From: Breznakia sp. PF5-3
GTDB lineage: Bacteria; Bacillota_I; Bacilli_A; Erysipelotrichales; Erysipelotrichaceae
Assembly (NCBI RefSeq): GCF_029504745.1
Contig: NZ_JAQFIQ010000053.1
Coordinates: forward strand, 1 to 14,814
Length of the DNA: 14,814 nt
Direction of reading: 5' to 3'
Positions 1 through 12,829 of this stretch are shown here, in pieces (the stretch's first letter is position 1; every line of letters starts with the position of its first letter). Under the pieces are notes generated by a model, which was given only the letters and a program-made list of their open reading frames with translations, was not told where the DNA came from and searched no databases. The translations under genes were made by a program, and so were the position numbers.

Positions 1-59
1 TTTATCGACTAAAATAGAGAAATTTCCTGCCTAATAGATTGTATCATATACCTTGTTAT

Positions 60-93
60 AAAAAAAGACCATTGACTTCTTTTGTCAACAGTC
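60..93 (-). terminator. Putative rho-independent terminator that works only on the minus strand
   Basis: GACCATTGAC (67-76) and GTCAACAGTC (84-93) flank a 7-nt loop. On the plus strand the stem has two C/A mismatches. In the minus-strand RNA these become G-U wobbles, giving a 10-bp stem followed by a U7 tract (complement of A60-A66). No obvious minus-strand gene feeds into it. Confidence 0.45.
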
Positions 94-96
94 TGC

Positions 97-123
97 AGTA
101 TCATGTGATAATGATACTTTTTT
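97..123 (+). terminator. Putative rho-independent terminator for a plus-strand gene lying upstream of the window
   Basis: AGTATCA (97-103), an 8-nt loop and TGATACT (112-118) are followed by a T-run to 123. The stem is only 7 bp with 2 G-C pairs, so it is weak. Confidence 0.4.
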
Positions 124-404
124 ACTTTAATGAGAATTAAAGAAACATAAGTGAATTGTACTAAACTATTATTTTTTATGTGGATGTAATTGTTTTGGCA
201 ACAATAAGATAGAAAATAATAAAGAAAAAGAAATGTGCAAATCGGAAGTTACCAGTCATGATGTTACATTAGATGTAAAGATTAAAGACAGGATTGATAT
301 ATTACTACGGGACCAAACTTTTTTAATATAGTTTAGATGCAAAAATCAAAGGAAATAATGAAATGCAAGATTACTATGGGAAATTGAATTAGGGAGAATA
401 CAAA

Positions 405-1109
405 ATGAAAAAACATAGAAAGTTAATTGTTCTGATAATTATAATTATAGTTCTAGTAGGAGTAACTATAGTTGGGAAAAAAGTTTATAAAGAAATGAAT
501 GAGAAAGATATCAATAATATTTTTGATGAAATGTATTATGTTGGTGAAGATAATGTTTCTGCATATTGGCATAAAGATGTATTTAAATCAGTATCAAAAG
601 AATCAAATCGGGCAAAAGGAACCATAGATAGTGATGGAATAAAACATGGACTGATGAGAGTTTATAATAAGTCAGCAATTTCACCTGCTTTAAAAGAATA
701 TGGTGTAGAAAGTATTATAGTGTATTTTGATTATGATCCATTTCTAAAAATTATAACATCAATTGATAGAGGGGAAGGGAGTGATGACAGTATAATTATA
801 CGTTGGATTTATAATGTGGAGAGCGATGAAATGGAACTTGAATTTGAATTTATAAATGAAAAAGCAAAATTTGAACCTATGACAGGAAAAGATATTGATG
901 AATTTTTAGCGAGTTTTGATATGGATTATGATGAACTATATGAAGTAGCGAGAATGTTCTTATATGATCAAATATTGATAGATTATTTAGAGGGGAATGA
1001 AAAGTTGTCAAAATTCTCAATGGATGATTTAGGAGATGTAGACATTTTAGGGGCAAAAGTTGTGCTATGTAGTAATTTTCTTGAAGGATGTTTGCAAAGC
1101 GAAAAATGA
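405..1109 (+). CDS. Hypothetical protein, N-terminally membrane-anchored and acidic, family not recognised
   Basis: 234-aa ORF with an AGGGAG RBS about 9 nt upstream. The N-terminus MKKHRK is followed by a roughly 20-residue hydrophobic helix (LIVLIIIIIVLVGVTIVG) with no lipobox or obvious signal-peptidase site. The rest is rich in D and E. I recognise no catalytic motif. Confidence 0.6.
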   Translation: MKKHRKLIVLIIIIIVLVGVTIVGKKVYKEMNEKDINNIFDEMYYVGEDNVSAYWHKDVFKSVSKESNRAKGTIDSDGIKHGLMRVYNKSAISPALKEYGVESIIVYFDYDPFLKIITSIDRGEGSDDSIIIRWIYNVESDEMELEFEFINEKAKFEPMTGKDIDEFLASFDMDYDELYEVARMFLYDQILIDYLEGNEKLSKFSMDDLGDVDILGAKVVLCSNFLEGCLQSEK

Positions 1110-1123
1110 TGTTAATTAAACGC

Positions 1124-1849
1124 TTAAAAAGGATGTAAGATAACTTCATTTTCTATAATGTATTGCCCCATGAGTTTATGCTGGGTTTGACTAATATAAA
1201 TTTTTCCATTTTGACGAGTCAGCAATCCATTGCTTTCAATTTTTTGTAGAGAACGATTAAGTGTGCGAACACTACAAGCCATTTTACTAGCAATATCTTC
1301 TCTTTTGGCATTGATTTTCACTTGTTTTACATCGCCATATTTTTGATATTCTTCATATAAGAATACAATGATTCTTGTTTCGATATCCAAAAATAGAAAT
1401 TGTCTTAAAAATTGTGTTTCTCTACTCAATACACTCATTAACATATTCATACGAATAAATAGAGCATTTACATCTTCTCTTACCCAATTCATATAATCAC
1501 CCGAATTGATACGAATACAAACACAATGATTTTTGGCACGCAAAGATACAAAACGGCCTGATGCATTGGAAAATAGTTCATAATCACCAAGCACATCAAT
1601 TGCTCGATATTCTCCAAACGTAAAAGGATAGCTAGGAACTTGTTCGTCAACGACAGATACTTTTCCTTTTAGTAATACGTAGACATACGTATTTGGATCA
1701 CCAGTTTCCATGATAGGGTGACCTTTTTCATAGGTAACAATTTCCATCTTTGCCTGTGTAGCTTCAGAACAATTTTTAAAGATTGTTGATACAAAGATAT
1801 AGTCATTATCACTAAGGTGAGTTTTACAATATTTTAAAATTTGTGACAT
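1124..1849 (-). CDS. Crp/Fnr-family transcriptional regulator (cNMP-binding-like beta-roll plus C-terminal HTH)
   Basis: 241 aa. The N-terminal 'GD...YVYVLLKGKVSV...FGE' pattern is typical of the Crp/Fnr effector domain. The C-terminal 'REDIASKMACSVRTLNRSLQKIESNGLL' is a Crp-type helix-turn-helix. An AAGGAG RBS lies on the minus strand at about 1856-1861. The gene is divergent from the deoD operon. Confidence 0.8.
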   Translation of the reverse strand: MSQILKYCKTHLSDNDYIFVSTIFKNCSEATQAKMEIVTYEKGHPIMETGDPNTYVYVLLKGKVSVVDEQVPSYPFTFGEYRAIDVLGDYELFSNASGRFVSLRAKNHCVCIRINSGDYMNWVREDVNALFIRMNMLMSVLSRETQFLRQFLFLDIETRIIVFLYEEYQKYGDVKQVKINAKREDIASKMACSVRTLNRSLQKIESNGLLTRQNGKIYISQTQHKLMGQYIIENEVILHPF

Positions 1850-1863
1850 AATTTACTCCTTAG

Positions 1864-1875
1864 GGACAAGTGTCC
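1864..1875. promoter_or_regulatory. Candidate operator palindrome GGACA-AG-TGTCC in the regulator leader
   Basis: Perfect 5-bp inverted arms (1864-1868 and 1871-1875) lie just upstream of the regulator RBS and downstream of a minus-strand TATAAT (complement of 1884-1889). A T8 run follows on the plus strand. Function is inferred only. Confidence 0.3.
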
Positions 1876-1918
1876 TTTTTTTTAATTATACACTAAGATA
1901 AGATAAAAATAGTAATAG

Positions 1919-1937
1919 GAAATCAATTTCTTATAAT
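1919..1937 (+). promoter_or_regulatory. Candidate -10 box (TATAAT 1932-1937) of the deoD operon with an abutting inverted repeat GAAAT-CA-ATTTC (1919-1930)
   Basis: A consensus TATAAT hexamer lies 25 nt upstream of the deoD ATG, with no good -35. The inverted repeat occupies the spacer or -35 region, where a repressor or activator of the Crp/Fnr type could bind. It does not match the FNR (TTGAT-N4-ATCAA) or CRP (TGTGA-N6-TCACA) consensus. Confidence 0.3.
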
Positions 1938-1961
1938 TATTATTTTGGAGGTAAGAGTTTT

Positions 1962-2678
1962 ATGGCAACACCGCATATTGAAGCAAAAGAAATGGATATC
2001 GCAAAAGTAGTTTTAATGCCTGGCGATCCATTAAGGGCAAAATATATAGCAGAAACATATTTGGAGGATGTTATTAAGTTTAATAATGTTCGAAATATGT
2101 TTGGTTTTACAGGAACATATAAAGGAAAAAGGATTTCCGTAATGGGTTCTGGTATGGGAATGCCAAGTATTGGAATTTATTCATACGAACTATTTAAAGT
2201 TTATGATGTTGAAGCAATTATCCGTATTGGTAGTGCAGGAGCATATACGGATGATTTGAAATTGTTTGATATTGTTTTAGCGAGTGATGCCTGGAGTGAG
2301 TCTTCGTTTGCACTTGCACAAGCTGGAGTAAAGGATTCAATAATGAAGCCAAGCGAAAAGTTGAATACTTTGATAAAAGATACAGCAGCAAGTATTAATA
2401 AAACAGTACATGAAAATCGTATTCACTCAAGTGATGTTTTCTATCATGAAGATAATGTAGATGGATATGCAGATTTCTATAGCAAACATGGATGTGTTTG
2501 TGTAGAGATGGAAAGTTTTGCATTGTTTCACACAGCAAACCTTTTCAATAAGCAAGCAGCATGTCTTTTAACAATTTCTGATTCACTTGTAACACATGAA
2601 GTGACAACGGCAGAACAACGACAAAATTCATTTAATGAGATGATGGAAATAGCATTAGAAAGCGCAATACAGGTTTAA
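1962..2678 (+). CDS. deoD: Purine nucleoside phosphorylase, DeoD type (hexameric PNP)
   Basis: 238 aa. The N-terminus 'MATPHI...[21 protein letters not shown]...[29 protein letters not shown]' is almost collinear with E. coli DeoD as I remember it, and the 'VCVEMES' active-site region is present. A GGAGG RBS lies at 1947-1951. Confidence 0.95.
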
Positions 2679-2683
2679 AAAAG

Positions 2684-3880
2684 ATGAAAAACTATAAACG
2701 AATTTTTACCATCGTAGTTGACTCATTGGGTGTGGGAGCAGATGATTTAGCTGGATATGATAAAGGTGCTAATACATTGGCTCACATCAGTGAGCATATG
2801 CCAAATTTTAAAATCCCAACATTACAAAAGTTAGGATTGGCGAATGTAACTAAGTTAGTATCAGTAGAAGCAGAAATATCTCCCCTTGCCACTTATACAA
2901 AAATGAAAGAGGCAAGTATTGGAAAAGATACGATGACAGGACACTGGGAAATGATGGGGTTGTTGATTGATACACCTTTCCAGACGTTCACAGAAGAAGG
3001 GTTTCCAAAGGAATTAATTGATGAATTAGAAAGTCGTACAGGACGTAAAGTAATTGGTAATAAAGCTGCAAGCGGTACAGAGATATTAGATGAATTTGGT
3101 GAAGAAGAAATTGCCACAGGTCATATGATTGTTTATACATCTGCAGATTCGGTACTACAAATTTGTGGAAATGAAGAGACAATGGGGTTGGATAATCTAT
3201 ATAAGTATTGTGAGATTGCACGTGAAATTACTATGAAACCAGAATGGAAAGTGGGAAGAATCATCGCTCGACCTTACACAGGAAATAAGAAAGGAAGCTT
3301 TGTACGTACTGCAAATCGTCATGATTATGCATTAAAACCATATGGTAGAACAGCACTAAATGTATTAAAAGATGCTGGAAAAGATGTTATCAGTGTGGGT
3401 AAGATTAATGATATTTTTGATGGTGAGGGTATTACAGAAGCATATAAATCAAAAAGTAGTGTGCATGGTATGGAGCAGACAATCGATATAGCAAAAAAAG
3501 ATTTCGATGGTTTATGCTTTGTAAATCTTGTGGATTTTGATGCCTTATGGGGACATCGACGCAATCCTGTAGGCTATGGTGAAGAGTTAGAGCGCTTTGA
3601 TGCTCTATTAGCTAAATTATTGGATGTGTTAAGAGAAGATGATTTATTGCTTATTGTAGCCGATCATGGAAATGATCCAACGTATATAGGTAGTGATCAC
3701 ACAAAAGAGATGGTACCATTCTTAGCATATAGCAAGGATATGGAACAAGGACAGCATTTAGAAGTATTTGATACATTTGCGAATGTAGGTGCAACAATTG
3801 TAGATAATTTTGGTTTCGCTATGCCAAAAGATACGATTGGAGTATCAAAATTAGCAGAAATCGTAAAATATCGTAAATAG
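2684..3880 (+). CDS. deoB: Phosphopentomutase
   Basis: 398 aa. It shows the 'VDSLGVGA' N-terminal metal-binding motif, '[10 protein letters not shown]', '[18 protein letters not shown]' and 'ADHGNDPT', all characteristic of DeoB in the alkaline-phosphatase superfamily. It starts 5 nt after deoD. Confidence 0.95.
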
Positions 3881-3901
3881 TATTCGAGGGAGGTTATAAA
3901 G

Positions 3902-5407
3902 ATGAGTAAAGTTAGTGAAATTATTAAAGACCCTACTTTGACATATCAACAGCAAGTACTATCACTTGCTCGATTGGCAGAGAGTGAAGATGATTCCTTA
4001 CCTCGAGATAAAGCGTTTATCGAAGCATTACAAGATGGTGTATTATGCGACTTAGGTGAAGGGTTAGCGCCATATCGTCCTCGATATATCGTGCCTGATT
4101 ATGAGTTGTTGATGAAAAAGGGGTGTGAATTTTTAGATATAGCACCACCTAGTGATATTTGGGAAGCTACCAATGCATTATTGATTTTTTATAAGCATGT
4201 ACCAAGTATTACATCATTTCCTGTATACTTAGGAAACTTTTCCACGCTTTTTGCACCATTTGATACAGAGGAAGAGATAACAAGAAAAGCTTTGAAATTG
4301 TTTTTACAACACATTGATAAAACCCTTACAGATTCTTTTGTTCATTCGAATATCGGACCAAAAGAAAATCGTGTAGGACATATTATTTTAGATTTAACAA
4401 AAGAAATGCAATTAGCAATACCAAATCTTACGTTGTTATACAATCCAGAAAAGACAAGCAACGAGTTCGCATTAAAATGTGTGGATTGTATGCTTGAAAC
4501 AAGTAAGCCAAGTTTTGCAAATGATGCGATGTATGCAAAAAATATGGATGGAAACTATGCCATTGTTAGTTGTTATAATGCATTAAAGATAGCAGGTGGT
4601 GGATATACATTACCACGAATTCGCTTATACGATGCTTCTTTAAAAGCAAAGGATGCAGATGATTTCTTAAATAACATACTTCCATACTATGTTGAAGTGT
4701 TGTTGAAGAATATGGATCAAAGAATTACTTATATTGTAGAAGAATCAAGTTTCTTTAAAAGTAACTTTCTTGCAAAGGAAGGCTTTGTTAAACAAGAAAA
4801 CTTCACTGGCATGTTCGGTGTTGTTGGCTTAGCAGAGTGTACAAATAACTTATTAGGAATTAGTGATAAAAGCAAAGGTTATGGACATGACAAAGATGCT
4901 GAAAAGTTAGCATCTACCATTCTAGATAAGATACATGATATGGTGGAAGCACATCATGGTGTGTATTGTGAGGGCTGCAATAATACTTATGTAATGCATG
5001 CTCAAGTTGGAATTGATACGGATGGTACAGAAAATTCTCCTGGGTGTCGAATTCCAATTGGAAGCGAACCAGAACTTAGAGATCATTTATTGTTAGAAGC
5101 AAAAATGCATAAACATTTTATATCAGGAATTGGTGATATCTTTAAGTTTGATAAAACTTGGAATAAAAATCCCCAAGCGATATTGGATATAATTAAGGGT
5201 GCATTCACAAGCGGAATGCGATACTTTACTGGATATAATGCTGATAATGATGTTGTTAGAGTTACAGGATATTTAGTAAAGCGTAGTGAAATTGAAAAAT
5301 TACGTAATAATGAGGCTTCTTTAAATCAAGTGACATTGTATGGTAAAGGAGCGGAAGAAAAAGGTAAGGCACTAAGTCGAAGAGTGTATGAAAACAGCAA
5401 TCGTTAA
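3902..5407 (+). CDS. yjjI: YjjI-family (DUF3029-like) glycyl radical enzyme, substrate unknown
   Basis: 501 aa with a strong GAGGGAGG RBS at 3886-3893. It has a C-terminal glycyl-radical fingerprint VVRVTGYLV (G456). It is much shorter than canonical GREs of roughly 750-850 aa. An overlapping dedicated activase gene follows immediately. The symbol is used by analogy with E. coli yjjI, and orthology is not verified. Confidence 0.85.
   Translation: MSKVSEIIKDPTLTYQQQVLSLARLAESEDDSLPRDKAFIEALQDGVLCDLGEGLAPYRPRYIVPDYELLMKKGCEFLDIAPPSDIWEATNALLIFYKHVPSITSFPVYLGNFSTLFAPFDTEEEITRKALKLFLQHIDKTLTDSFVHSNIGPKENRVGHIILDLTKEMQLAIPNLTLLYNPEKTSNEFALKCVDCMLETSKPSFANDAMYAKNMDGNYAIVSCYNALKIAGGGYTLPRIRLYDASLKAKDADDFLNNILPYYVEVLLKNMDQRITYIVEESSFFKSNFLAKEGFVKQENFTGMFGVVGLAECTNNLLGISDKSKGYGHDKDAEKLASTILDKIHDMVEAHHGVYCEGCNNTYVMHAQVGIDTDGTENSPGCRIPIGSEPELRDHLLLEAKMHKHFISGIGDIFKFDKTWNKNPQAILDIIKGAFTSGMRYFTGYNADNDVVRVTGYLVKRSEIEKLRNNEASLNQVTLYGKGAEEKGKALSRRVYENSNR
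5258..5272 (+). other. Glycyl radical site motif R-V-T-G-Y (G456 codon at 5267-5269)
   Basis: Read directly as aga gtt aca gga tat in the frame of 3902-5407. It matches the RVxG[FWY] fingerprint shared by PFL, class III RNR and other GREs, and lies 45 residues from the C-terminus. Confidence 0.8.
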
Positions 5408-6227
5408 TAAAATTATTCCATTTTCAAATGTTGATGGACCAGGAAATCGGACAGCAATCTTTTTTCAAGGATGTTCATTCGCTTGTTTGTATTGTCACAA
5501 TCCTGAGACAATCCATCTATGCAGGCATTGTGGAGAATGTGTTGAACAATGTCCTGTGAATGCTTTATCAATGAAAAATGGAAAAGTTGTATGGGATGAT
5601 GAAATATGTTGCGAATGTGATACATGTATAAAGGTGTGTCCACATCTCTCATCTCCAAAAACAAAGCTTATGAAGGTAGCGGATATTGTTGAATATATTA
5701 AACCTCATGTAGCATTTATAGAAGGAATTACAGTAAGTGGTGGAGAATGTATGTTGCAGGCAGATTTTCTACTAGAACTATTTAAAGAAATGAAAAAAAT
5801 GGGATTAACTTGTTTAATCGACAGCAATGGAACTGTTGATTTTCGTAAGCATACATCATTACTAGATATAAGTGATGGAGTTATGCTGGATGTGAAAGCA
5901 TTTGATAATGACTTTCACCGTCAAATTTGTAAATACGATAATTTGTCAGTAAAACAAAACTTGGATTACTTGCAAAGTATACATAAACTTTTGGAAGTTC
6001 GAACCGTATTGCTTCCAAACCAAGATGAGCAAAATGAAGCTACTGTGAATTATGTAAGTAAATGTTTAAAAGAAGGAATTACATATAAGCTGCTTCGATT
6101 CCGTCCATATGGGGTCCGCTTTGAAGGTGTTGAATACTTTGGAAAGGAAAGCGTTAGTGAAGAATACGCAGAAAAATTCAAGAATATTGTTTTGAAAAAT
6201 GGACACAATGATATAATTATCGTATAG
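5388..6227 (+). CDS. yjjW: Glycyl-radical enzyme activating enzyme (radical SAM), YjjW type
   Basis: 279 aa. The N-terminal 'SNVDGPGNRTAIFFQGCSFACLYCHNPE' carries CX3CX2C at C29/C33/C36. Two ferredoxin-like motifs follow: C45-x2-C48-x2-C51-x3-C55-P and C74-x2-C77-x2-C80-x3-C84-P. The 'SGGEC' SAM-binding motif is present. The ATG overlaps the upstream GRE gene by 20 nt. Confidence 0.9.
   Translation: MKTAIVNKIIPFSNVDGPGNRTAIFFQGCSFACLYCHNPETIHLCRHCGECVEQCPVNALSMKNGKVVWDDEICCECDTCIKVCPHLSSPKTKLMKVADIVEYIKPHVAFIEGITVSGGECMLQADFLLELFKEMKKMGLTCLIDSNGTVDFRKHTSLLDISDGVMLDVKAFDNDFHRQICKYDNLSVKQNLDYLQSIHKLLEVRTVLLPNQDEQNEATVNYVSKCLKEGITYKLLRFRPYGVRFEGVEYFGKESVSEEYAEKFKNIVLKNGHNDIIIV
5472..5639 (+). 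other. Radical-SAM [4Fe-4S] motif (5472-5495) plus two auxiliary ferredoxin-type cluster motifs (5520-5639)
   Basis: The cysteine codons were read directly in frame: tgt at 5472, 5484 and 5493 for CX3CX2C, then CRHCGECVEQCP and CCECDTCIKVCP. This architecture resembles the activases of non-PFL GREs, which carry auxiliary clusters. Confidence 0.85.
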
Positions 6228-6275: not shown

Positions 6276-7352
6276 ATGAAAAAATTTAGTATTATGGCTG
6301 TGACAGCGTGCCTTGTATTGCTATTAAGTGCATGTGGTGGCTCAGATGGTGACAGCGCAAAGGATGACACATGTCCTGTAAAAGTTGGATTTGTAACGGA
6401 CATGGGAGGGATTGATGATCGCTCATTTAACCAAGGATCTTGGGAAGGTGTACAGCAATTTGCCAAAGATAACAAATTGGATAAGAGTTGCTATACATAC
6501 CTAGAATCAAAAACAGAAGCAGATTATACTACAAACTTATCAACATTGGCAGATGATGGATATGATATCGTAATCGCAGCAGGTTACTTATTCATAGATT
6601 CAATGGGAGATGTGGCTGCACAATACCCTGACACAAAATTTTTGATTATTGATGGTGTTGTAGAAGCAGAAAACGTGGAAAGTGCAGTATTTGCCGCAAA
6701 TGAATCGTCTTATTTGGCAGGTATGGCAGCAGCTTTAGAAGCGAAAGAACAAGGATCTAATGATGTTGGATTTATTGGAGGTATGGAAGGTGAAGTAATT
6801 GGAGCTTTCCAAGCTGGATTTGAACAAGGTGCATTGGATGCGAATCCAGATGTTATCGTTCATGTAGACTATGTAGGTAGTTATGATGATGCTGGTAAAG
6901 CGACAACATTAGCTGCTAAGCAATATGATGCAGGTGTAAAAGTAATTTTCCATGCTGCAGGAAATGCAGGTAATGGTGTTATCAAAGAAGCACAAACAAG
7001 AAGTGAAGCTGGCGATATAGTATATGTGGTTGGTGTAGATAAAGATCAATACGATACAGGTAAATACGGTGATGATGACAAGTCAGTAATTTTAACTTCT
7101 GCATTAAAACGTGTAGATGTTGCAACTTATGATGCAGCTAAAGCAGTTATGGATGATAAATTCGAAGCTGGAGTTACAACATATACATTAAAAGAAAATG
7201 GTGTAGGAATTCCTGAGAAAAACCCTAACTTAAGTGATAGTATTAAAAAAGCATTGGATAAAGCAATAGCGGATATTAAAGATGGAACAATTACAGTAAA
7301 TGAAAAACCTGTAATTGCAAATGGTTCTTCAAAATCACCAAAAGCTAAATAA
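6276..7352 (+). CDS. BMP-family (PnrA/Med/TmpC-like) nucleoside-binding lipoprotein, the ABC transporter substrate-binding component
   Basis: 358 aa. The signal peptide has the lipobox L-S-A-C (C20 codon at 6333-6335). 'GFVTDMGGIDDRSFNQGSWEG' is the hallmark BMP-family motif. It corresponds to B. subtilis NupN (YufN), L. lactis RnsB-system binding proteins and Treponema PnrA. A GGAGG RBS lies at 6266-6270. Confidence 0.9.
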   Translation: MKKFSIMAVTACLVLLLSACGGSDGDSAKDDTCPVKVGFVTDMGGIDDRSFNQGSWEGVQQFAKDNKLDKSCYTYLESKTEADYTTNLSTLADDGYDIVIAAGYLFIDSMGDVAAQYPDTKFLIIDGVVEAENVESAVFAANESSYLAGMAAALEAKEQGSNDVGFIGGMEGEVIGAFQAGFEQGALDANPDVIVHVDYVGSYDDAGKATTLAAKQYDAGVKVIFHAAGNAGNGVIKEAQTRSEAGDIVYVVGVDKDQYDTGKYGDDDKSVILTSALKRVDVATYDAAKAVMDDKFEAGVTTYTLKENGVGIPEKNPNLSDSIKKALDKAIADIKDGTITVNEKPVIANGSSKSPKAK

Positions 7353-7422: not shown

Positions 7423-8946
7423 ATGGAATATGCAGTAGAAATGCTAAACATCACAAAAGAGTTTCCAGGAATCAAAGCAAATGATGATGTAACGGTTCGC
7501 TTAAAACAGGGAACAATTCATGCGTTGCTTGGTGAAAATGGGGCTGGAAAGTCTACGTTAATGTCAATTCTATTTGGTTTATATAAGCCAACTTCAGGTG
7601 AAATAAAAGTAAAAGGTAAAGTTATTGAAGATATGGATCCTAATTTGGCAACAGAGTTGCATATAGGGATGGTGCATCAACACTTTAAACTTGTGGAATC
7701 TTTTACAGTGACTGAAAATATTGTGTTGGGTCAAGAGCCTATGAAAAATCATATGATTGATTATAAAGCGGCGAAAAAGCGAATTTTGGAGTTATCAGAA
7801 CAATATGGATTTAAGGTTGATCCAGATGCAAAGATTTCTGATATATCAGTAGGGACACAACAAAAAGTTGAAATTTTAAAAATGCTATATCGCAATGCAG
7901 AAATTTTGATTTTTGATGAACCAACAGCGGTTTTAACACCACAAGAAATTGATGATTTGATTTTGATTATGAAACAATTGGTAAAAGAAGGAAAGAGTAT
8001 TTTATTGATTACGCATAAGCTTCAAGAAATTAAAGCAGTTGCTGATGAATGTAGTGTTTTACGTAGAGGTAAATACATTGCTACAGTGAATGTAAAAGAT
8101 ACAAGTAAAGAAGAAATGGCAGAAATGATGGTGGGTCGTAATGTTAATTTTAATGTTGAAAAAGGCCCTGCAAAACCAGCTGAAGTGGTTTTGGATATTA
8201 AAAATATCGATGTTTGTGATGAAGATAAAAATAGAAAAGTAAAAGATTTTTCTTTACAGGTGAGATCTGGAGAGATTGTTGGTGTTGCTGGAGTTGATGG
8301 AAATGGCCAGAGTGAATTGATTTATGCACTTTGTGGGTTGATGAAAAACACCAAAGGAACAATTTGTTTGAATGGGGAAGACATTAGTAAAATGTCAATT
8401 AAGAAGCGTTTTGATAAAGGGCTTGGACATATCCCTGAAGATCGACATAAATATGGATTGGTATTGGATTTTCTTTTAAAAGAGAATTTGGTGTTACAGT
8501 CTTATAATGATGCACCATATTCAAAAAAAGGAATCTTACAAAAAAATGAAATTGATAAGCATGCAGATCGTTTGATTGAAATCTTTGATGTAAGAAGTGG
8601 AGAAGGTAAGGATTCCTTAACCCGTAGTATGTCTGGAGGAAATCAACAAAAAGCAATTATTGCGCGTGAAATTGAACGTAATCCTAAATTGTTATTAGTC
8701 GTACAACCAACACGAGGTCTGGATGTAGGAGCAATTGAATATATTCAAAAACGTATTATTGAAGAGCGAGACAAAGGGACAGCGGTGTTACTAGTTTCAT
8801 TGGATTTAGATGAAATACTAGATTTATCAGATAAGATTGCAGTTATGCATGATGGAGAATGTACAGCATTCTTAGACCGCTCAGAAACAGATTTCAGAGA
8901 TATTGGATTATATATGGCTGGAACTAAGAAAGGAGAAGAATCATGA
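7423..8946 (+). CDS. ABC transporter ATP-binding protein with two fused ATPase domains (CUT2/nucleoside type, NupO/YufO-like)
   Basis: 507 aa. The first domain has Walker A 'GENGAGKST', a signature-like 'VGTQQKVEIL' and Walker B 'ILIFDEPT'. The second domain has a degenerate Walker A 'GVDGNGQSE', signature 'MSGGNQQK' and 'LLVVQPTRGLD'. Confidence 0.92.
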   Translation: MEYAVEMLNITKEFPGIKANDDVTVRLKQGTIHALLGENGAGKSTLMSILFGLYKPTSGEIKVKGKVIEDMDPNLATELHIGMVHQHFKLVESFTVTENIVLGQEPMKNHMIDYKAAKKRILELSEQYGFKVDPDAKISDISVGTQQKVEILKMLYRNAEILIFDEPTAVLTPQEIDDLILIMKQLVKEGKSILLITHKLQEIKAVADECSVLRRGKYIATVNVKDTSKEEMAEMMVGRNVNFNVEKGPAKPAEVVLDIKNIDVCDEDKNRKVKDFSLQVRSGEIVGVAGVDGNGQSELIYALCGLMKNTKGTICLNGEDISKMSIKKRFDKGLGHIPEDRHKYGLVLDFLLKENLVLQSYNDAPYSKKGILQKNEIDKHADRLIEIFDVRSGEGKDSLTRSMSGGNQQKAIIAREIERNPKLLLVVQPTRGLDVGAIEYIQKRIIEERDKGTAVLLVSLDLDEILDLSDKIAVMHDGECTAFLDRSETDFRDIGLYMAGTKKGEES

Positions 8947-10073
8947 AGAAAAACCTTTCACCAATAAAAATTTCCCTTATATCCGTTGGAATGGGATTGA
9001 TTCTTGGGATTATCATTTTGGTAGCATCTGGCTATAGTCCGATGGTTTTATTTAATGCTATGTTACGTGGGTTAGTAGGATCCACTTTCAATAATTTTGG
9101 TAATTTTAATTTACGTAATACAGGTGAATTTATTGTATTTTCATTACCAATTATTTTAACTGGTCTTTCCGTTGCTTTTGCATATCGTACAGGTATGTTT
9201 AATATTGGTGCTGAAGGACAAGTTATGGTAGGGGCATGTGCAAGTATTTGTGTTGCACTACTTGTACCACTACCAGGAATCTTACATGTAATTGCTTGTG
9301 TAATTGCAGGAGCAGTAGCAGGAGCATTATGGGGCCTTATTCCAGGGATTTTGAAAAGTCGTTATAAAATTAATGAGGTTGTTGTATGTATCATGTTGAA
9401 TTACTTTGGTATGTACTTCTCAAATTATATTTTAAAAGCATTACCAGGTTCGAGTATTTCAAAGACAGTACAAATACCTAGTTCAGCTTCACTATCTAGT
9501 GATTTCTTGAGTTCGATTACAAATAATTCACGGTTGAATTGGGGAATTCTAATTGTAGCTTTAGCAATCTTTGCATATTGGTTTATTTTAAATAAAACCG
9601 CTTTTGGTTTTAGTCTGCGTGCTACTGGATATAATGAAGATGCTGCGCAGTACGCAGGTATGAAAACGAAAAGAAATGTTGTTTATTCAATGATGATTGC
9701 AGGAGCTCTTGCAGGATTAGCTGGAGCCGTTATTTCCTTAGGTACCTTCAACATGGGTAGAGTTATCGGGTCTTTTGAAAATTATGGATTTGATGGTATT
9801 GCCGTTGCTTTTGTTGGCGCCTTTAATGCAATTGGAATTATGCTTGCAGGATTGTTGTTTGGATTGTTGAAAGTGATGTCTCCACTTATGCAGGCAACTG
9901 GTGTTCCAAAAGAGATTAATGAAATAATTTCGGCAGGTATTGTATTGTTTGTGGCAATGCAATATGGAATTATATTGTTATTAAATCGCTTTCATAAGAA
10001 AAAGAAGAAACCAAAGAAAATTGAAACTGATAAAAATGAGAATGAAAAAGTGGAAGGAGGCGTGAAAGTATGA
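8943..10073 (+). CDS. ABC transporter permease (NupP/YufP/RnsC-like) with a lysine-rich C-terminal tail
   Basis: 376 aa and polytopic, with multiple hydrophobic segments. An ATGA overlap of 4 nt with the ATPase stop indicates translational coupling. Its position and family are typical of the BMP-type nucleoside importer. Confidence 0.9.
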   Translation: MKKNLSPIKISLISVGMGLILGIIILVASGYSPMVLFNAMLRGLVGSTFNNFGNFNLRNTGEFIVFSLPIILTGLSVAFAYRTGMFNIGAEGQVMVGACASICVALLVPLPGILHVIACVIAGAVAGALWGLIPGILKSRYKINEVVVCIMLNYFGMYFSNYILKALPGSSISKTVQIPSSASLSSDFLSSITNNSRLNWGILIVALAIFAYWFILNKTAFGFSLRATGYNEDAAQYAGMKTKRNVVYSMMIAGALAGLAGAVISLGTFNMGRVIGSFENYGFDGIAVAFVGAFNAIGIMLAGLLFGLLKVMSPLMQATGVPKEINEIISAGIVLFVAMQYGIILLLNRFHKKKKKPKKIETDKNENEKVEGGVKV

Positions 10074-11020
10074 ATTTATTTCTACAAATGTTTCCAGCAG
10101 CTTTGATTATGGCAACACCGATTGTAATTGCAGCATTAGGTGGTTTGTTTTCTGAGCGTAGTGGAATTATCAATATTGCTCTTGAAGGTATTATGTTAGT
10201 TGGTGCTTTTGCAACCGCAACAGTAACCATTTTATTAAGTGATAGTCTTGGTAATTTTGCTCCTTGGGTAGGAATTATTATCGGTGCAATTGTAGGATGT
10301 TTATATTCTGCAATCCATGCTTTTGTGTCGATAAACTTGAAAGCGGATCAAACGATTTCTGGGGTAGCATTAAATATGCTTTCTACAGGATTGACAATTT
10401 ACTTATGTCAGTTGATATTTCAAGGACAAAGAACGCCAAACTTTCCTACTAATATAGCAAAGTTATCAGTTCCTATCTTGAAGGATATACCAATTATTGG
10501 GCCAATGTTCTTTAGCAATGTATATCCAACTTTCTTTATCGCTGTAGGACTTGTCCTATTAACGTATTTCTTGATGTATAAGACGCGTTTTGGGTTGCGT
10601 CTACGCTCATGTGGTGAGTATCCACAAGCAAGTGCTTCGATGGGGATAACCGTTGCTAAAATGCGCTATATTGGTGTTTTAACTTCAGGTTTCCTTGGGG
10701 GACTTGCAGGCGGTATTATGGTGTTGACAACGAATATTCAATTTAGTGTTAGTGTTATTCATGGAGTTGGATTTATTGCCCTAGGATGTTTGGTGTTTGG
10801 AAAATGGCATCCATTTGGTTGTTTACTTACAGGAGTATTTTTTGGATTCTCAGAAACCATTTCATCATATTCTGGAAATATCCCAGGATTATCAGGTTTC
10901 CCAACCGAATTTTTCTATAGTATACCTTATGTTCTAACAATCATTGCGTTGATAATCTTCGCAAAACGTTCAGTTGGACCAAAAGCTGCTGGAAAAATTT
11001 ACGATGCTGGGCAAAGATAA
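10070..11020 (+). CDS. ABC transporter permease (NupQ/YufQ/RnsD-like)
   Basis: 316 aa and polytopic. It has a 4-nt ATGA overlap with the preceding permease, and a GGAAGGAGG RBS is embedded in the upstream gene's tail. Confidence 0.9.
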   Translation: MNLFLQMFPAALIMATPIVIAALGGLFSERSGIINIALEGIMLVGAFATATVTILLSDSLGNFAPWVGIIIGAIVGCLYSAIHAFVSINLKADQTISGVALNMLSTGLTIYLCQLIFQGQRTPNFPTNIAKLSVPILKDIPIIGPMFFSNVYPTFFIAVGLVLLTYFLMYKTRFGLRLRSCGEYPQASASMGITVAKMRYIGVLTSGFLGGLAGGIMVLTTNIQFSVSVIHGVGFIALGCLVFGKWHPFGCLLTGVFFGFSETISSYSGNIPGLSGFPTEFFYSIPYVLTIIALIIFAKRSVGPKAAGKIYDAGQR

Positions 11021-11083: not shown

Positions 11084-11479
11084 ATGAATACATTAATTGA
11101 AAAGACAAAAACATATTTAAAGAATGCATATGTACCATATTCTGATTTTCGAGTTGCTGCATGTGTAAAGACTAAAACAAAAGAATATTATGGAGCAAAT
11201 ATCGAAAATGCTTCTTATGGACTTTCCAATTGTGCTGAGCGAAGTGCTTTATTTGCTGCATATTCTCAAGGGGTTCGTAAAGAAGATATTGAAGCGATGA
11301 TTATTGTTACAAAGGCTAAGCAATTAACCTATCCATGTGGTGCATGTCGTCAAGTAATGGTTGAACTTGTACCTAGAGAGGCAAAGGTTATACTGGCAAA
11401 TGAACATGAAATTAAAGAAACTACAGTTGAAGAGTTAATACCTTTTGCTTTTGATGCTTCAGATTTAGATGAAGAATAG
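11084..11479 (+). CDS. cdd: Cytidine deaminase (small homotetrameric type)
   Basis: 131 aa. The zinc and catalytic motifs 'NCAERSALF' (C-A-E) and 'PCGACRQVM' (PCxxC) have the correct spacing, and the size matches B. subtilis-type Cdd. Confidence 0.93.
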   Translation: MNTLIEKTKTYLKNAYVPYSDFRVAACVKTKTKEYYGANIENASYGLSNCAERSALFAAYSQGVRKEDIEAMIIVTKAKQLTYPCGACRQVMVELVPREAKVILANEHEIKETTVEELIPFAFDASDLDEE

Positions 11480-11493
11480 AGAGGGAAAAGACG

Positions 11494-12795
11494 ATGAATA
11501 TAATAGAAATCATTGAAAAGAAACGTGATGGTCAAATTCTAACAAAAGAAGAAATTGAGTATTTTGTGAAAGCCTATTGCGATGGTACGATTGCAGAATA
11601 TCAAGCTTCTGCTTTGCTTATGGCAATTTATTTTAATTCACTTAATAAGGAAGAATTGTCTGTTTTTACGAAAGCGATGATAGAGAGCGGGAGAACATAT
11701 GATTTTTCTAGTTATGATGGTGTATTTGTAGATAAACATTCAACTGGTGGTGTAGGAGATAAGACAACCTTGGTGTTAGCTCCCATCTTAGCCGTTTGTG
11801 GTTGTAAAGTCGCTAAAATGAGTGGTAGAGGATTATCTTTTACTGGTGGAACTTTGGATAAACTAGAATCAATCCCCGGCTTACAGGTTGAAGTTAGTGA
11901 AGCTGATTTTATGAAACAAGTAGAGGAAATTGGTTGTGCTGTAATTGGACAAAGCAATGATATGGTGTATGCAGATAAAAAACTATATGCACTCCGTGAT
12001 GTAACAGGAACAGTTAGTAGTATTCCACTTATCGCTTCTTCTGTTATGTCTAAGAAAATCGCTGCTGGAAGTGAAGTTATTTTATTAGATGTAAAATGTG
12101 GTGATGGTGCATTTATGAAAAACAAAGATGATGCTATTGAATTGGCGAAACGAATGATTGAAATTGGTGAAAGTGCCAATCGCAAAGTCGCGGCTGAAAT
12201 TACAAGTATGGATGATGTGTTAGGTACTTGTGTTGGTAATTCATTAGAAGTATGGGAAGCAATTGAAACATTGAAAGGAAATTATGACCAAGATTTCTAT
12301 GATTTATGTGTACATTCTTCTTATACAATTTTAAAGATGGCTAATATTTGTGAGAATGAAGAAGAAGCACGACAAAAAGTAGAAGCCTGTATTCAAGATG
12401 GAACAGCTTTGGCAAAATTAAAAGAAATGATTGAATATCAACATGGTAATGGCGAAGTAGTTAATAATTATGAACTATTAGCGATTTCTAAACAAACGGT
12501 TGATGTTTATGCAGATACTGCTGGTTATCTAAATACGTTGCATGTGAAGGATATAGGACTTTTATCTTGCGCACTTGGAGCAGGTAGAATGCAAATTGAA
12601 GATGCAATCGATCATGGGGTAGGAATTGTTTTACACAAGAAACGTTATGATAGGGTTGAAAAAGGAGATATCTTATGTACTCTCTATGTAAATGACACCT
12701 TCGAAGAAAGCTTGGTTGATAAAATGAAAGCATGCTTTGTAATTGAAGAGAATGAAATAGAGAGAGAACCATTAATATACAAAGTATTGCATTAA
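11494..12795 (+). CDS. pdp: Pyrimidine-nucleoside (thymidine/uridine) phosphorylase
   Basis: 433 aa. It shows 'IIEKKRDG..L..EEI..F' at the N-terminus, 'DKHSTGGVGDKTTLVLAPILA' (phosphate-binding), 'MSGRGLSFTGGTLDKLESIPG' and 'LYALRDVT', which are typical of the Pdp/DeoA family. Confidence 0.93.
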   Translation: MNIIEIIEKKRDGQILTKEEIEYFVKAYCDGTIAEYQASALLMAIYFNSLNKEELSVFTKAMIESGRTYDFSSYDGVFVDKHSTGGVGDKTTLVLAPILAVCGCKVAKMSGRGLSFTGGTLDKLESIPGLQVEVSEADFMKQVEEIGCAVIGQSNDMVYADKKLYALRDVTGTVSSIPLIASSVMSKKIAAGSEVILLDVKCGDGAFMKNKDDAIELAKRMIEIGESANRKVAAEITSMDDVLGTCVGNSLEVWEAIETLKGNYDQDFYDLCVHSSYTILKMANICENEEEARQKVEACIQDGTALAKLKEMIEYQHGNGEVVNNYELLAISKQTVDVYADTAGYLNTLHVKDIGLLSCALGAGRMQIEDAIDHGVGIVLHKKRYDRVEKGDILCTLYVNDTFEESLVDKMKACFVIEENEIEREPLIYKVLH

Positions 12796-12798
12796 TAC

Positions 12799-12829
12799 AA
12801 AAGATACAGAAATAATTCTGTATCTTTTT
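12799..12829 (+). terminator. Rho-independent terminator ending the nucleoside operon
   Basis: GATACAGAA (12803-12811), loop ATAA and TTCTGTATC (12816-12824) form a perfect 9-bp stem. It is flanked by AAAA upstream and TTTTT downstream (12825-12829), so it looks bidirectional. It starts 4 nt after the pdp stop. Confidence 0.8.

Follow-up and report, generated by a model that had tools for sequence, protein, structure and literature searches.

What does a glycyl radical enzyme (GRE) do in the middle of a set of genes for the uptake and breakdown of nucleosides? The question is raised by a stretch of 14,814 nucleotides (nt) from Breznakia sp. PF5-3, contig NZ_JAQFIQ010000053.1 (hereafter the window; all coordinates are those of its forward strand), where the genes yjjI and yjjW stand between a phosphopentomutase gene and the genes of an importer. 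Using sequence comparisons and a structural model, we showed that the pair has the features of a genuine GRE and its dedicated activase, with G456 as the predicted radical site and C224 as the predicted thiyl site. We also showed that both genes lie, by their order, inside a block of genes for the import and catabolism of nucleosides. What YjjI does there we can answer only tentatively. Its substrate may be a nucleoside-derived ribosyl compound, on which it would perform a radical elimination or isomerisation. We give this a little less than an even chance, and we rate any single substrate much lower.

A compact radical enzyme and its activase

The two genes and their motifs (lengths in amino acids, aa; SAM, S-adenosylmethionine) are arranged as follows.

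3902..5407, + strand: yjjI, YjjI-family glycyl radical enzyme, 501 aa (TIGR04040, PF11230)
4568..4579, + strand: Cys finger loop S223-C224-Y225-N226, C224 being the predicted thiyl-radical cysteine
5258..5272, + strand: glycyl radical motif R453-V-T-G456-Y457, 45 residues from the C-terminus
5388..6227, + strand: yjjW, dedicated radical-SAM activase, 279 aa (TIGR04041), overlapping yjjI by 20 nt
5472..5495, + strand: radical-SAM cluster motif C29-x3-C33-x2-C36 of YjjW (regular expression on the translation; PF04055 match)
5520..5642, + strand: ferredoxin-like insert of YjjW, with two CX2CX2CX3CP motifs (regular expression) and Fer4-family matches over residues 44-86

The two reading frames, the RVTGY motif and the cysteine motifs of the activase are all where the initial annotation of the window had placed them, and its assignments to TIGR04040, PF11230 and TIGR04041 proved correct, with scores above the curated cutoffs. 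YjjI matches TIGR04040 with 679.6 bits (cutoff 498.3; residues 3-495 on positions 2-496 of the 497 in the profile) and PF11230 with 700.3 bits (cutoff 23), and shares 38% identity with E. coli YjjI along the entire protein. Public databases list an identical protein under the title 'YjjI family glycine radical enzyme [Breznakia sp. PF5-3]', so that the existing name is right. The gene is a new member of a known family whose reaction remains orphan. This family is compact, since an exhaustive search of 1.84 billion cluster representatives returned only 466 matches, about 20 of them full length (50% identity clusters). At least 586 stretches in species genomes from various bacteria match it, and one member is archaeal; the family is thus widespread as well. 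In one database protein (P0274, 574 aa, on a 2.9-kb contig) a YjjI-like domain with 100% identity to the E. coli protein is joined to a DeoC-family aldolase domain. Since yjjI and deoC are divergent in E. coli, this fusion probably arose as an artefact of assembly or gene calling.

We compared the residues of YjjI in two alignments, one of 20 diverse and one of 81 mixed members of the family. R453 and G456 are invariant in both, and the RVTGY motif aligns with RVSGY of pyruvate formate-lyase (PFL; G734) and with RITGY of NrdD, the class III ribonucleotide reductase (RNR). C224, which aligns with PFL C419, is the sole invariant cysteine: neither alignment holds a second one, and no cysteine after C224 is conserved across the family. 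Further invariant residues are H148, E293 and several arginines. The invariant arginines and lysines of the larger alignment (R61, K202, R239, R274, R383 and R493) are many and may point to an anionic substrate. The Breznakia protein carries three other cysteines, C356, C359 and C382 (window 4967-5047, residues 356-382). They are all missing in E. coli YjjI, for which reason we rejected them as a zinc site typical of the family. The position of C356 is a cysteine in the consensus of both alignments, and the three residues may form a clade-specific metal or disulfide site.

YjjW matches TIGR04041 with 366.5 bits (cutoff 250.2) and is 39% identical to E. coli YjjW. The cysteines of its insert are spaced C45x2C48x2C51x3C55-P and C74x2C77x2C80x3C84-P. 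Outside its own family its best matches are the HypD activase (147 bits) and PFLE_PFLC (137 bits), and it is far nearer to the ferredoxin-domain activases of eliminases and decarboxylases than to NrdG or PflA. According to a June 2026 review of the superfamily, the ferredoxin insert occurs in most GRE activases and is absent from those of PFL and class III RNR. Two distant loci (L087, on an archaeal contig where eIF-1A, NMD3 and RIO1 are neighbours, and L090) encode YjjI with a short activase of 243-247 aa that has no Fer4-family Pfam match, and hence the insert is perhaps not universal in YjjW. Two Anaerorhabdus loci (L045 and L061) have a Bmp transporter directly after yjjI with no yjjW between them, and L062 also lacks an adjacent yjjW; in these three the activase must be encoded elsewhere or have been lost.

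No solved structure of the YjjI family was detectable by sequence. Our AlphaFold2 model, built on the 81-sequence alignment, has a predicted local distance difference test score (pLDDT) of 92.3 and a predicted template modelling score (pTM) of 0.91. The predicted fold is a GRE barrel, as the initial annotation had anticipated, with C224 at the tip of one beta-hairpin (E220-222 / E226-228) and G456 at the tip of another (E451-453 / E458-460). When the model was compared with the PDB by Foldseek, there were 107 matches at E<=0.001, and 50 of the 50 matches listed are glycyl radical enzymes. Class III RNR comes at the top (E 3e-17, query-normalised TM-score 0.74-0.77); PflD, YbiW, hydroxyproline-type dehydratases and PFL rank next. 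Profile alignment by hhalign gave a probability of 92% to E. coli NrdD and of 45% to PflB; with the latter, YAIVSC of YjjI falls on YAIACC, C224 on C419, RVTGY on RVSGY and G456 on G734. The earlier statement that YjjI is 250-350 aa shorter than any characterised GRE needs correcting, as it omits class III RNR, the closest structural relative, whose solved chains have about 530-715 residues.

The hallmarks of NrdD are a C-terminal zinc-binding cysteine cluster and an N-terminal ATP-cone or allosteric region. YjjI has no ATP-cone Pfam match. A full-length match to NrdD is absent, the only match being a local one to PF13597 (29.1 bits; YjjI residues 237-349 on positions 281-398 of 562), and the NCBIfam profile search of YjjI reported no NrdD model. 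In the hhalign alignment the N-C positions of FNCMLID, the stretch around NrdD C175, fall opposite a two-residue gap in YjjI. We tried C49 as an analogue of C175 and rejected it: it does not align with C175, and it is not invariant, being swapped for H, Y, D or T in several YjjI clades. Nor is the architecture that of PFL, given that S223-C224 stands in place of C418-C419 and that the PF02901 match is local and spans only 74 residues. In GRE 1,2-eliminases the signature is a G-C-x-E Cys-loop with a catalytic glutamate. All YjjI members have S-C-Y-N instead, and the invariant E293 lies elsewhere in the sequence. YjjI is, as judged from sequence and predicted fold, a minimal GRE barrel at least as near to NrdD as to PFL-like enzymes, combined with a PFL2-type activase.

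A nucleoside gene block around yjjI and yjjW

Around the pair, the window holds the following features.

1124..1849, - strand: gene for a Crp/Fnr-family transcription factor (PF00027 cNMP_binding and PF13545 HTH_Crp_2), divergent from the operon
1850..1961, + strand: divergent promoter/operator region 5' of deoD; inverted repeat at 1862-1877, conserved block at about 1879-1910
1962..2678, + strand: deoD, purine nucleoside phosphorylase (TIGR00107, 286.5 bits, cutoff 232)
2684..3880, + strand: deoB, phosphopentomutase (TIGR01696, 526.9 bits, cutoff 341)
6276..7352, + strand: Bmp/PnrA-like substrate-binding lipoprotein of an ATP-binding cassette (ABC) importer (PF02608, 239 bits)
7423..8946, + strand: double ABC ATPase of the importer (PF00005, two domains)
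8943-10073 and 10070-11020, + strand: two BPD_transp_2 permeases (PF02653), with 4-nt start/stop overlaps
11084..11479, + strand: cdd, cytidine deaminase (TIGR01354, 134.5 bits, cutoff 113.65)
11494..12795, + strand: pdp, pyrimidine nucleoside phosphorylase (TIGR02644, 558 bits, cutoff 409)
12799..12828, + strand: intrinsic-terminator-like hairpin, a 13-bp stem and then a T-rich tail (TTAATTATTAT), 4 nt past the pdp stop

Ten co-directional genes are thus tightly packed on the + strand in the order deoD-deoB-yjjI-yjjW-bmp-ABC-permease-permease-cdd-pdp. The gaps between them are, in order, 5, 21, -20, 48, 70, -4, -4, 63 and 14 nt, and each gene is preceded by a purine-rich ribosome-binding site. 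The neighbours claimed in the initial annotation, namely deoD, deoB, a Bmp-type importer, cdd and pdp, are borne out by the profile matches. So are, in the sequence and by a pattern scan, the 21 nt before yjjI, the 48 nt after yjjW and the lack of a terminator on either side of the pair. Between deoD and pdp the same scan found no convincing + strand terminator, only a weak site within pdp. Co-transcription of the ten genes is well supported by this architecture. The substrate of the ABC importer is presumed to be a nucleoside, given the Bmp/PnrA family name and the flanking cdd and pdp. In B. pachnodae the ten genes recur in identical order beside the same divergent Crp/Fnr-family gene, and the intergenic region is conserved in part. 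There is no deoC in the Breznakia operon, either among the open reading frames (ORFs) of the window or at the B. pachnodae locus.

The hairpin-like inverted repeat at 1862-1877, AGGGACAAGTGTCCTT, is followed by a T run and lies between the Crp/Fnr-family gene and deoD. Next to it, a block of about 30 nt (approximately 1879-1910, TTTAATTATACACTAAGATAA-ATAAAAAT) is nearly invariant relative to B. pachnodae. The repeat and the adjoining block may constitute an operator or promoter, and the Crp/Fnr-family gene is, by its position, a candidate regulator of the operon. A scan of the whole window with Rfam matched no riboswitch, leader RNA or other family. We also considered a recent horizontal insertion of yjjIW and found it unsupported, because the GC content of both genes, overall and at third codon positions (GC3), matches that of their neighbours. 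Upstream of the regulator, a 234-aa ORF (405-1109, + strand) matches the TipC family immunity protein model NF033863 with 45 bits (cutoff 30). This family is tied to type VII secretion toxins, and the ORF appears unrelated to the operon.

Neighbours and regulation across the family

Does the association with nucleoside genes extend beyond this locus? We inspected the neighbourhoods of the 80 species-genome loci nearest to the YjjI of the window (51-89% identity), which were found with a 7-sequence alignment. The set consists mostly of Firmicutes, with some Fusobacteria, and its statistics are biased toward Firmicutes because it is restricted to the 80 closest loci. Adjacent yjjW genes were found in 75 of the 80 loci, and a Bmp-type transporter occurs within five genes of yjjI in 22. 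The Bmp-linked arrangements vary: 10 are co-directional downstream, 5 nested antisense, 4 convergent and 4 divergent. In the nested loci (L023, L028, L035, L055 and L059, from Clostridia/Oscillospiraceae-type metagenome-assembled genomes) yjjI-yjjW is reversed between the ABC ATPase and Bmp genes, an unusual nesting within a transporter operon that keeps both systems together. An inosine-uridine nucleoside hydrolase and an ADP-ribosylglycohydrolase-domain protein are encoded divergently upstream in four loci (L050, at 3181-6146, L052, L057 and L060). The protein paired there with the hydrolase has 660-677 aa, of which the N-terminal part is an ADP-ribosylglycohydrolase domain and about 360 at the C-terminal end are unassigned. 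Two loci have a phosphoglucomutase-family mutase downstream. Direct linkage of deoD, deoB, cdd and pdp to yjjIW is confined, among the 80, to the two Breznakia species; over all members sampled, enterobacteria are the sole addition. Among the 98 immediate neighbours in the 58 loci without a Bmp transporter, each Pfam family is found at most 4 times, so this transporter is the only recurrent partner besides YjjW. The block of RNase Y, MiaB, RNase J and FtsK genes upstream and M16 peptidase genes downstream in Erysipelotrichaceae was set aside as housekeeping synteny, not functional partnership.

Outside this set, yjjW-yjjI of E. coli K-12 is divergent from deoCABD, 257 bp away, and in Edwardsiella the pair is flanked by deoCABD and a gene for a NupC-family transporter; in Proteus the deo genes are not adjacent to yjjIW. 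We also looked up ten more distant YjjI members one by one. In two related Acidimicrobiia-type contigs (L088, at 1-3198, and L094, at 1-4052) a gene set for reductive pyrimidine catabolism lies 4-7 kb upstream of yjjI; it encodes a dihydropyrimidinase-like amidohydrolase, a class III aminotransferase and a CN hydrolase. At another locus (L089, 8001-10374) yjjI-yjjW follows napD/napB by about 190 nt, in the same orientation as this periplasmic nitrate reductase cluster, which echoes the nitrate-linked co-expression reported for E. coli. The enrichment for nucleoside genes expected in the initial annotation was therefore found only in part: it holds for E. coli and Edwardsiella, with deoCABD or nupC, and for the 22 loci with Bmp, but not for the other 58 or for most of the distant members. 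The nucleoside link recurs across independent lineages and arrangements, without being universal.

Published data on regulation support an anaerobic role for yjjI. In E. coli it belongs to an operon directly activated by FNR (PMC3688515), and in anaerobic Yersinia intermedia yjjI is up 4.3-fold and yjjW 2.1-fold (PMC3792023). Chromatin immunoprecipitation sequencing of E. coli CRP gave peaks both within yjjI and between it and deoC (PMC4287617), and hence the deo regulatory region appears to overlap the 5' part of yjjI. A biclustering study of 2011 grouped yjjI of E. coli and Salmonella with narG and further genes of the FNR/NarL type, and from this co-expression it predicted that yjjI acts in nitrogen metabolism (PMC3228777). 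No reaction is given for YjjI or YjjW in the searchable literature, a scope that leaves out subscription-only papers. The June 2026 review distinguishes seven functional GRE classes and is silent on YjjI, so the earlier statement that the family has no established substrate stands.

Candidate reactions and known relatives

How might such an enzyme work? YjjW, with SAM and a reduced [4Fe-4S] cluster, would abstract a hydrogen from G456 of YjjI. The resulting glycyl radical would generate a thiyl radical on C224, at the opposing finger-loop tip in a predicted ten-stranded barrel. The substrate would be a nucleoside-derived ribosyl compound, be it a nucleoside, ribose-1-phosphate or (deoxy)ribose-5-phosphate. 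The thiyl radical would take a hydrogen from a hydroxyl-bearing carbon of the sugar, and the ketyl radical would then expel a neighbouring leaving group, i.e. a hydroxyl, a phosphate, the base or the ring oxygen. The outcome would be a redox-neutral 1,2-elimination or isomerisation, comparable to the first half-reaction of RNR or to the C-O lyases YbiW and PflD, delivering a deoxy-keto sugar for fermentation with no net reduction. We favour elimination or isomerisation over reduction because YjjI lacks the reducing cysteine of NrdD, YjjW is an eliminase-type activase, and YbiW and PflD are known GREs that open cyclic sugar phosphates. One can go further and see in YjjI an oxygen-sensitive step of anaerobic nucleoside or pentose-phosphate catabolism, an elimination like the first half of the RNR reaction, and an eighth GRE class that bridges class III RNR and the PFL-like enzymes. 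This we consider possible, though rather doubtful. The nucleoside-type substrate proposed in the initial annotation is plausible from the recurrent context, but it is not established. The chemistries it had listed (1,2-elimination on ribose phosphates, C-C cleavage of deoxyribose-5-phosphate, radical cleavage of the glycosidic bond) are speculation and remain conjecture.

Several observations speak against an elimination or isomerisation of a nucleoside-derived compound. The nucleoside link is perhaps lineage-specific, because 58 of the 80 loci and most of the distant members sampled have no nucleoside context; nucleoside genes were not found beside yjjIW in Ferrimonas, in another gammaproteobacterium, in the archaeon with the short activase or in three metagenomic contigs. 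Independent events of Bmp linkage must be few, since the 22 Bmp-linked loci fall in only 3 of the 7 YjjI clusters at 65% identity. At one locus the pair comes after a nap nitrate-reductase operon, and the E. coli co-expression data point to nitrate metabolism (PMC3228777). The S-C-Y-N loop, without G-C-x-E, means that the acid/base machinery is not that of known 1,2-eliminases. The phosphorylases of the operon already cleave the glycosidic bond, which would make a radical step redundant and leaves the need for it unexplained. Finally, both the substrate and the co-transcription are inferred from sequence and gene context.

Several of these points fit as well with a genuine GRE system acting on a non-nucleoside substrate, in which the adjacency to deo and Bmp genes would reflect a lineage-specific gene order or shared anaerobic or catabolite regulation. 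The substrate might then belong, for example, to nitrate or nitrite respiration. Most sampled members are indeed stand-alone two-gene units with heterogeneous neighbours, the Bmp-linked loci are confined to a few subclades, and in several Erysipelotrichaceae the pair sits in a housekeeping block between ftsK and M16 peptidase genes. The position after napD/napB and the co-clustering with narG and FNR/NarL-type genes in E. coli and Salmonella (PMC3228777) point the same way. Yet inheritance of one gene order is unlikely, because the nucleoside association spans two phyla with differing partner genes and orientations. Besides, no alternative neighbour theme recurs, and the nitrate link consists of one locus and of co-expression that FNR control alone could explain. 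We regard a substrate unrelated to nucleosides, which is the main alternative, as somewhat unlikely.

Much less probable is a pared-down relative of NrdD performing the net reduction of a ribosyl compound, such as a ribonucleoside or ribose-5-phosphate, to its 2-deoxy form with formate or a thiol, and feeding DeoC or deoxynucleoside salvage. The closest structural and profile match to YjjI is indeed NrdD, yjjI is next to deoC in enterobacteria, and such a reaction might serve as an electron sink under fermentation. But the essential second cysteine, C175 in E. coli NrdD, lies opposite a gap and no other is invariant in the family, C49 being variable. RNR-like reduction is disfavoured because this active-site cysteine is missing. 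Neither a conserved zinc-ribbon cysteine set nor an ATP-cone is present, YjjW is not NrdG-like, and the Breznakia operon has no deoC. It is just as improbable that YjjI alters the ring or a side chain of a purine or pyrimidine by radical chemistry, rather than the sugar: the phosphorylases encoded by deoD and pdp in the operon also release free bases, and the Acidimicrobiia-type contigs carry dihydropyrimidinase, beta-ureidopropionase-like CN hydrolase and aminotransferase genes 4-7 kb upstream, but these genes are non-adjacent, in opposite orientation and from a single lineage, the fold resembles that of enzymes of ribose or sugar phosphates, and the invariant Arg/Lys residues hint at an anionic substrate.

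Radical elimination or isomerisation of a ribosyl compound is the reading we prefer. YjjI looks to us like one of the last E. coli GREs without a known reaction. The position of the pair between phosphopentomutase and importer narrows the substrate list to a few commercially available compounds. Neither the family nor its closeness to deo in E. coli is a new finding; the Breznakia context makes this long-standing orphan directly testable. If the nucleoside link is true, a pathway considered fully understood gains a radical branch, and the link is relevant to gut and insect-gut anaerobes that feed on the breakdown products of nucleic acids. If it is false, a minimal NrdD-like barrel with a PFL2-type activase is still notable.

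Among known systems, class III RNR is the best structural and profile match, at about 12% identity. Its barrel is compact and its glycyl motif similar to that of YjjI, and the genomic context of both is ribose-related. YjjI differs in lacking an equivalent of C175, the conserved zinc-ribbon cysteines and the ATP-cone, and in being some 100-200 aa shorter; and YjjW carries a ferredoxin insert whereas NrdG has none. The Cys-loop and Gly-loop sequences of PflB align directly with those of YjjI, which has a local PFL-like Pfam match, but YjjI has a single cysteine (S223-C224) in place of the C418-C419 pair, is about 260 aa shorter, and has an activase of a class other than PflA. The GRE 1,2-eliminases (glycerol and propanediol dehydratases, CutC, HypD) have the activases that YjjW matches best outside its family, and the chemistry proposed for YjjI is of the same type; they differ in the Cys loop, G-C-x-E against S-C-Y-N, and YjjI is about 300 aa smaller. 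YbiW and PflD, formerly orphan E. coli enzymes too, are GRE isomerases, i.e. C-O lyases of 1,5-anhydroglucitol-6-phosphate and 1,5-anhydromannitol-6-phosphate, cyclic sugar phosphates whose cleavage feeds an aldolase. Their structures (8id0, 8yjo, 8id7) are among the top Foldseek matches of YjjI. With about 765-810 aa they are PFL-like, have no detectable sequence kinship to YjjI beyond the superfamily and occur in another genomic context.

Nearest of all are E. coli YjjI (b4380) and YjjW (b4379), the type members of TIGR04040/TIGR04041 and PF11230 (formerly DUF3029). They share with the Breznakia pair the S-C-Y-N and R-V-T-G-Y loops, the overlap of the genes and the proximity to deo genes. 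The E. coli pair is divergent from deoCABD, with deoC present, whereas the Breznakia pair is embedded in an operon from which deoC is absent. Canonical nucleoside operons are deoCABD of E. coli and the deoC-nupC-pdp type of Firmicutes. Like them, the Breznakia block unites deoD, deoB, cdd, pdp and a nucleoside importer in what would be one transcription unit. It departs from them in having no deoC and in carrying a radical enzyme pair directly after deoB, and it is the tightest and most informative functional context among the YjjI members sampled.

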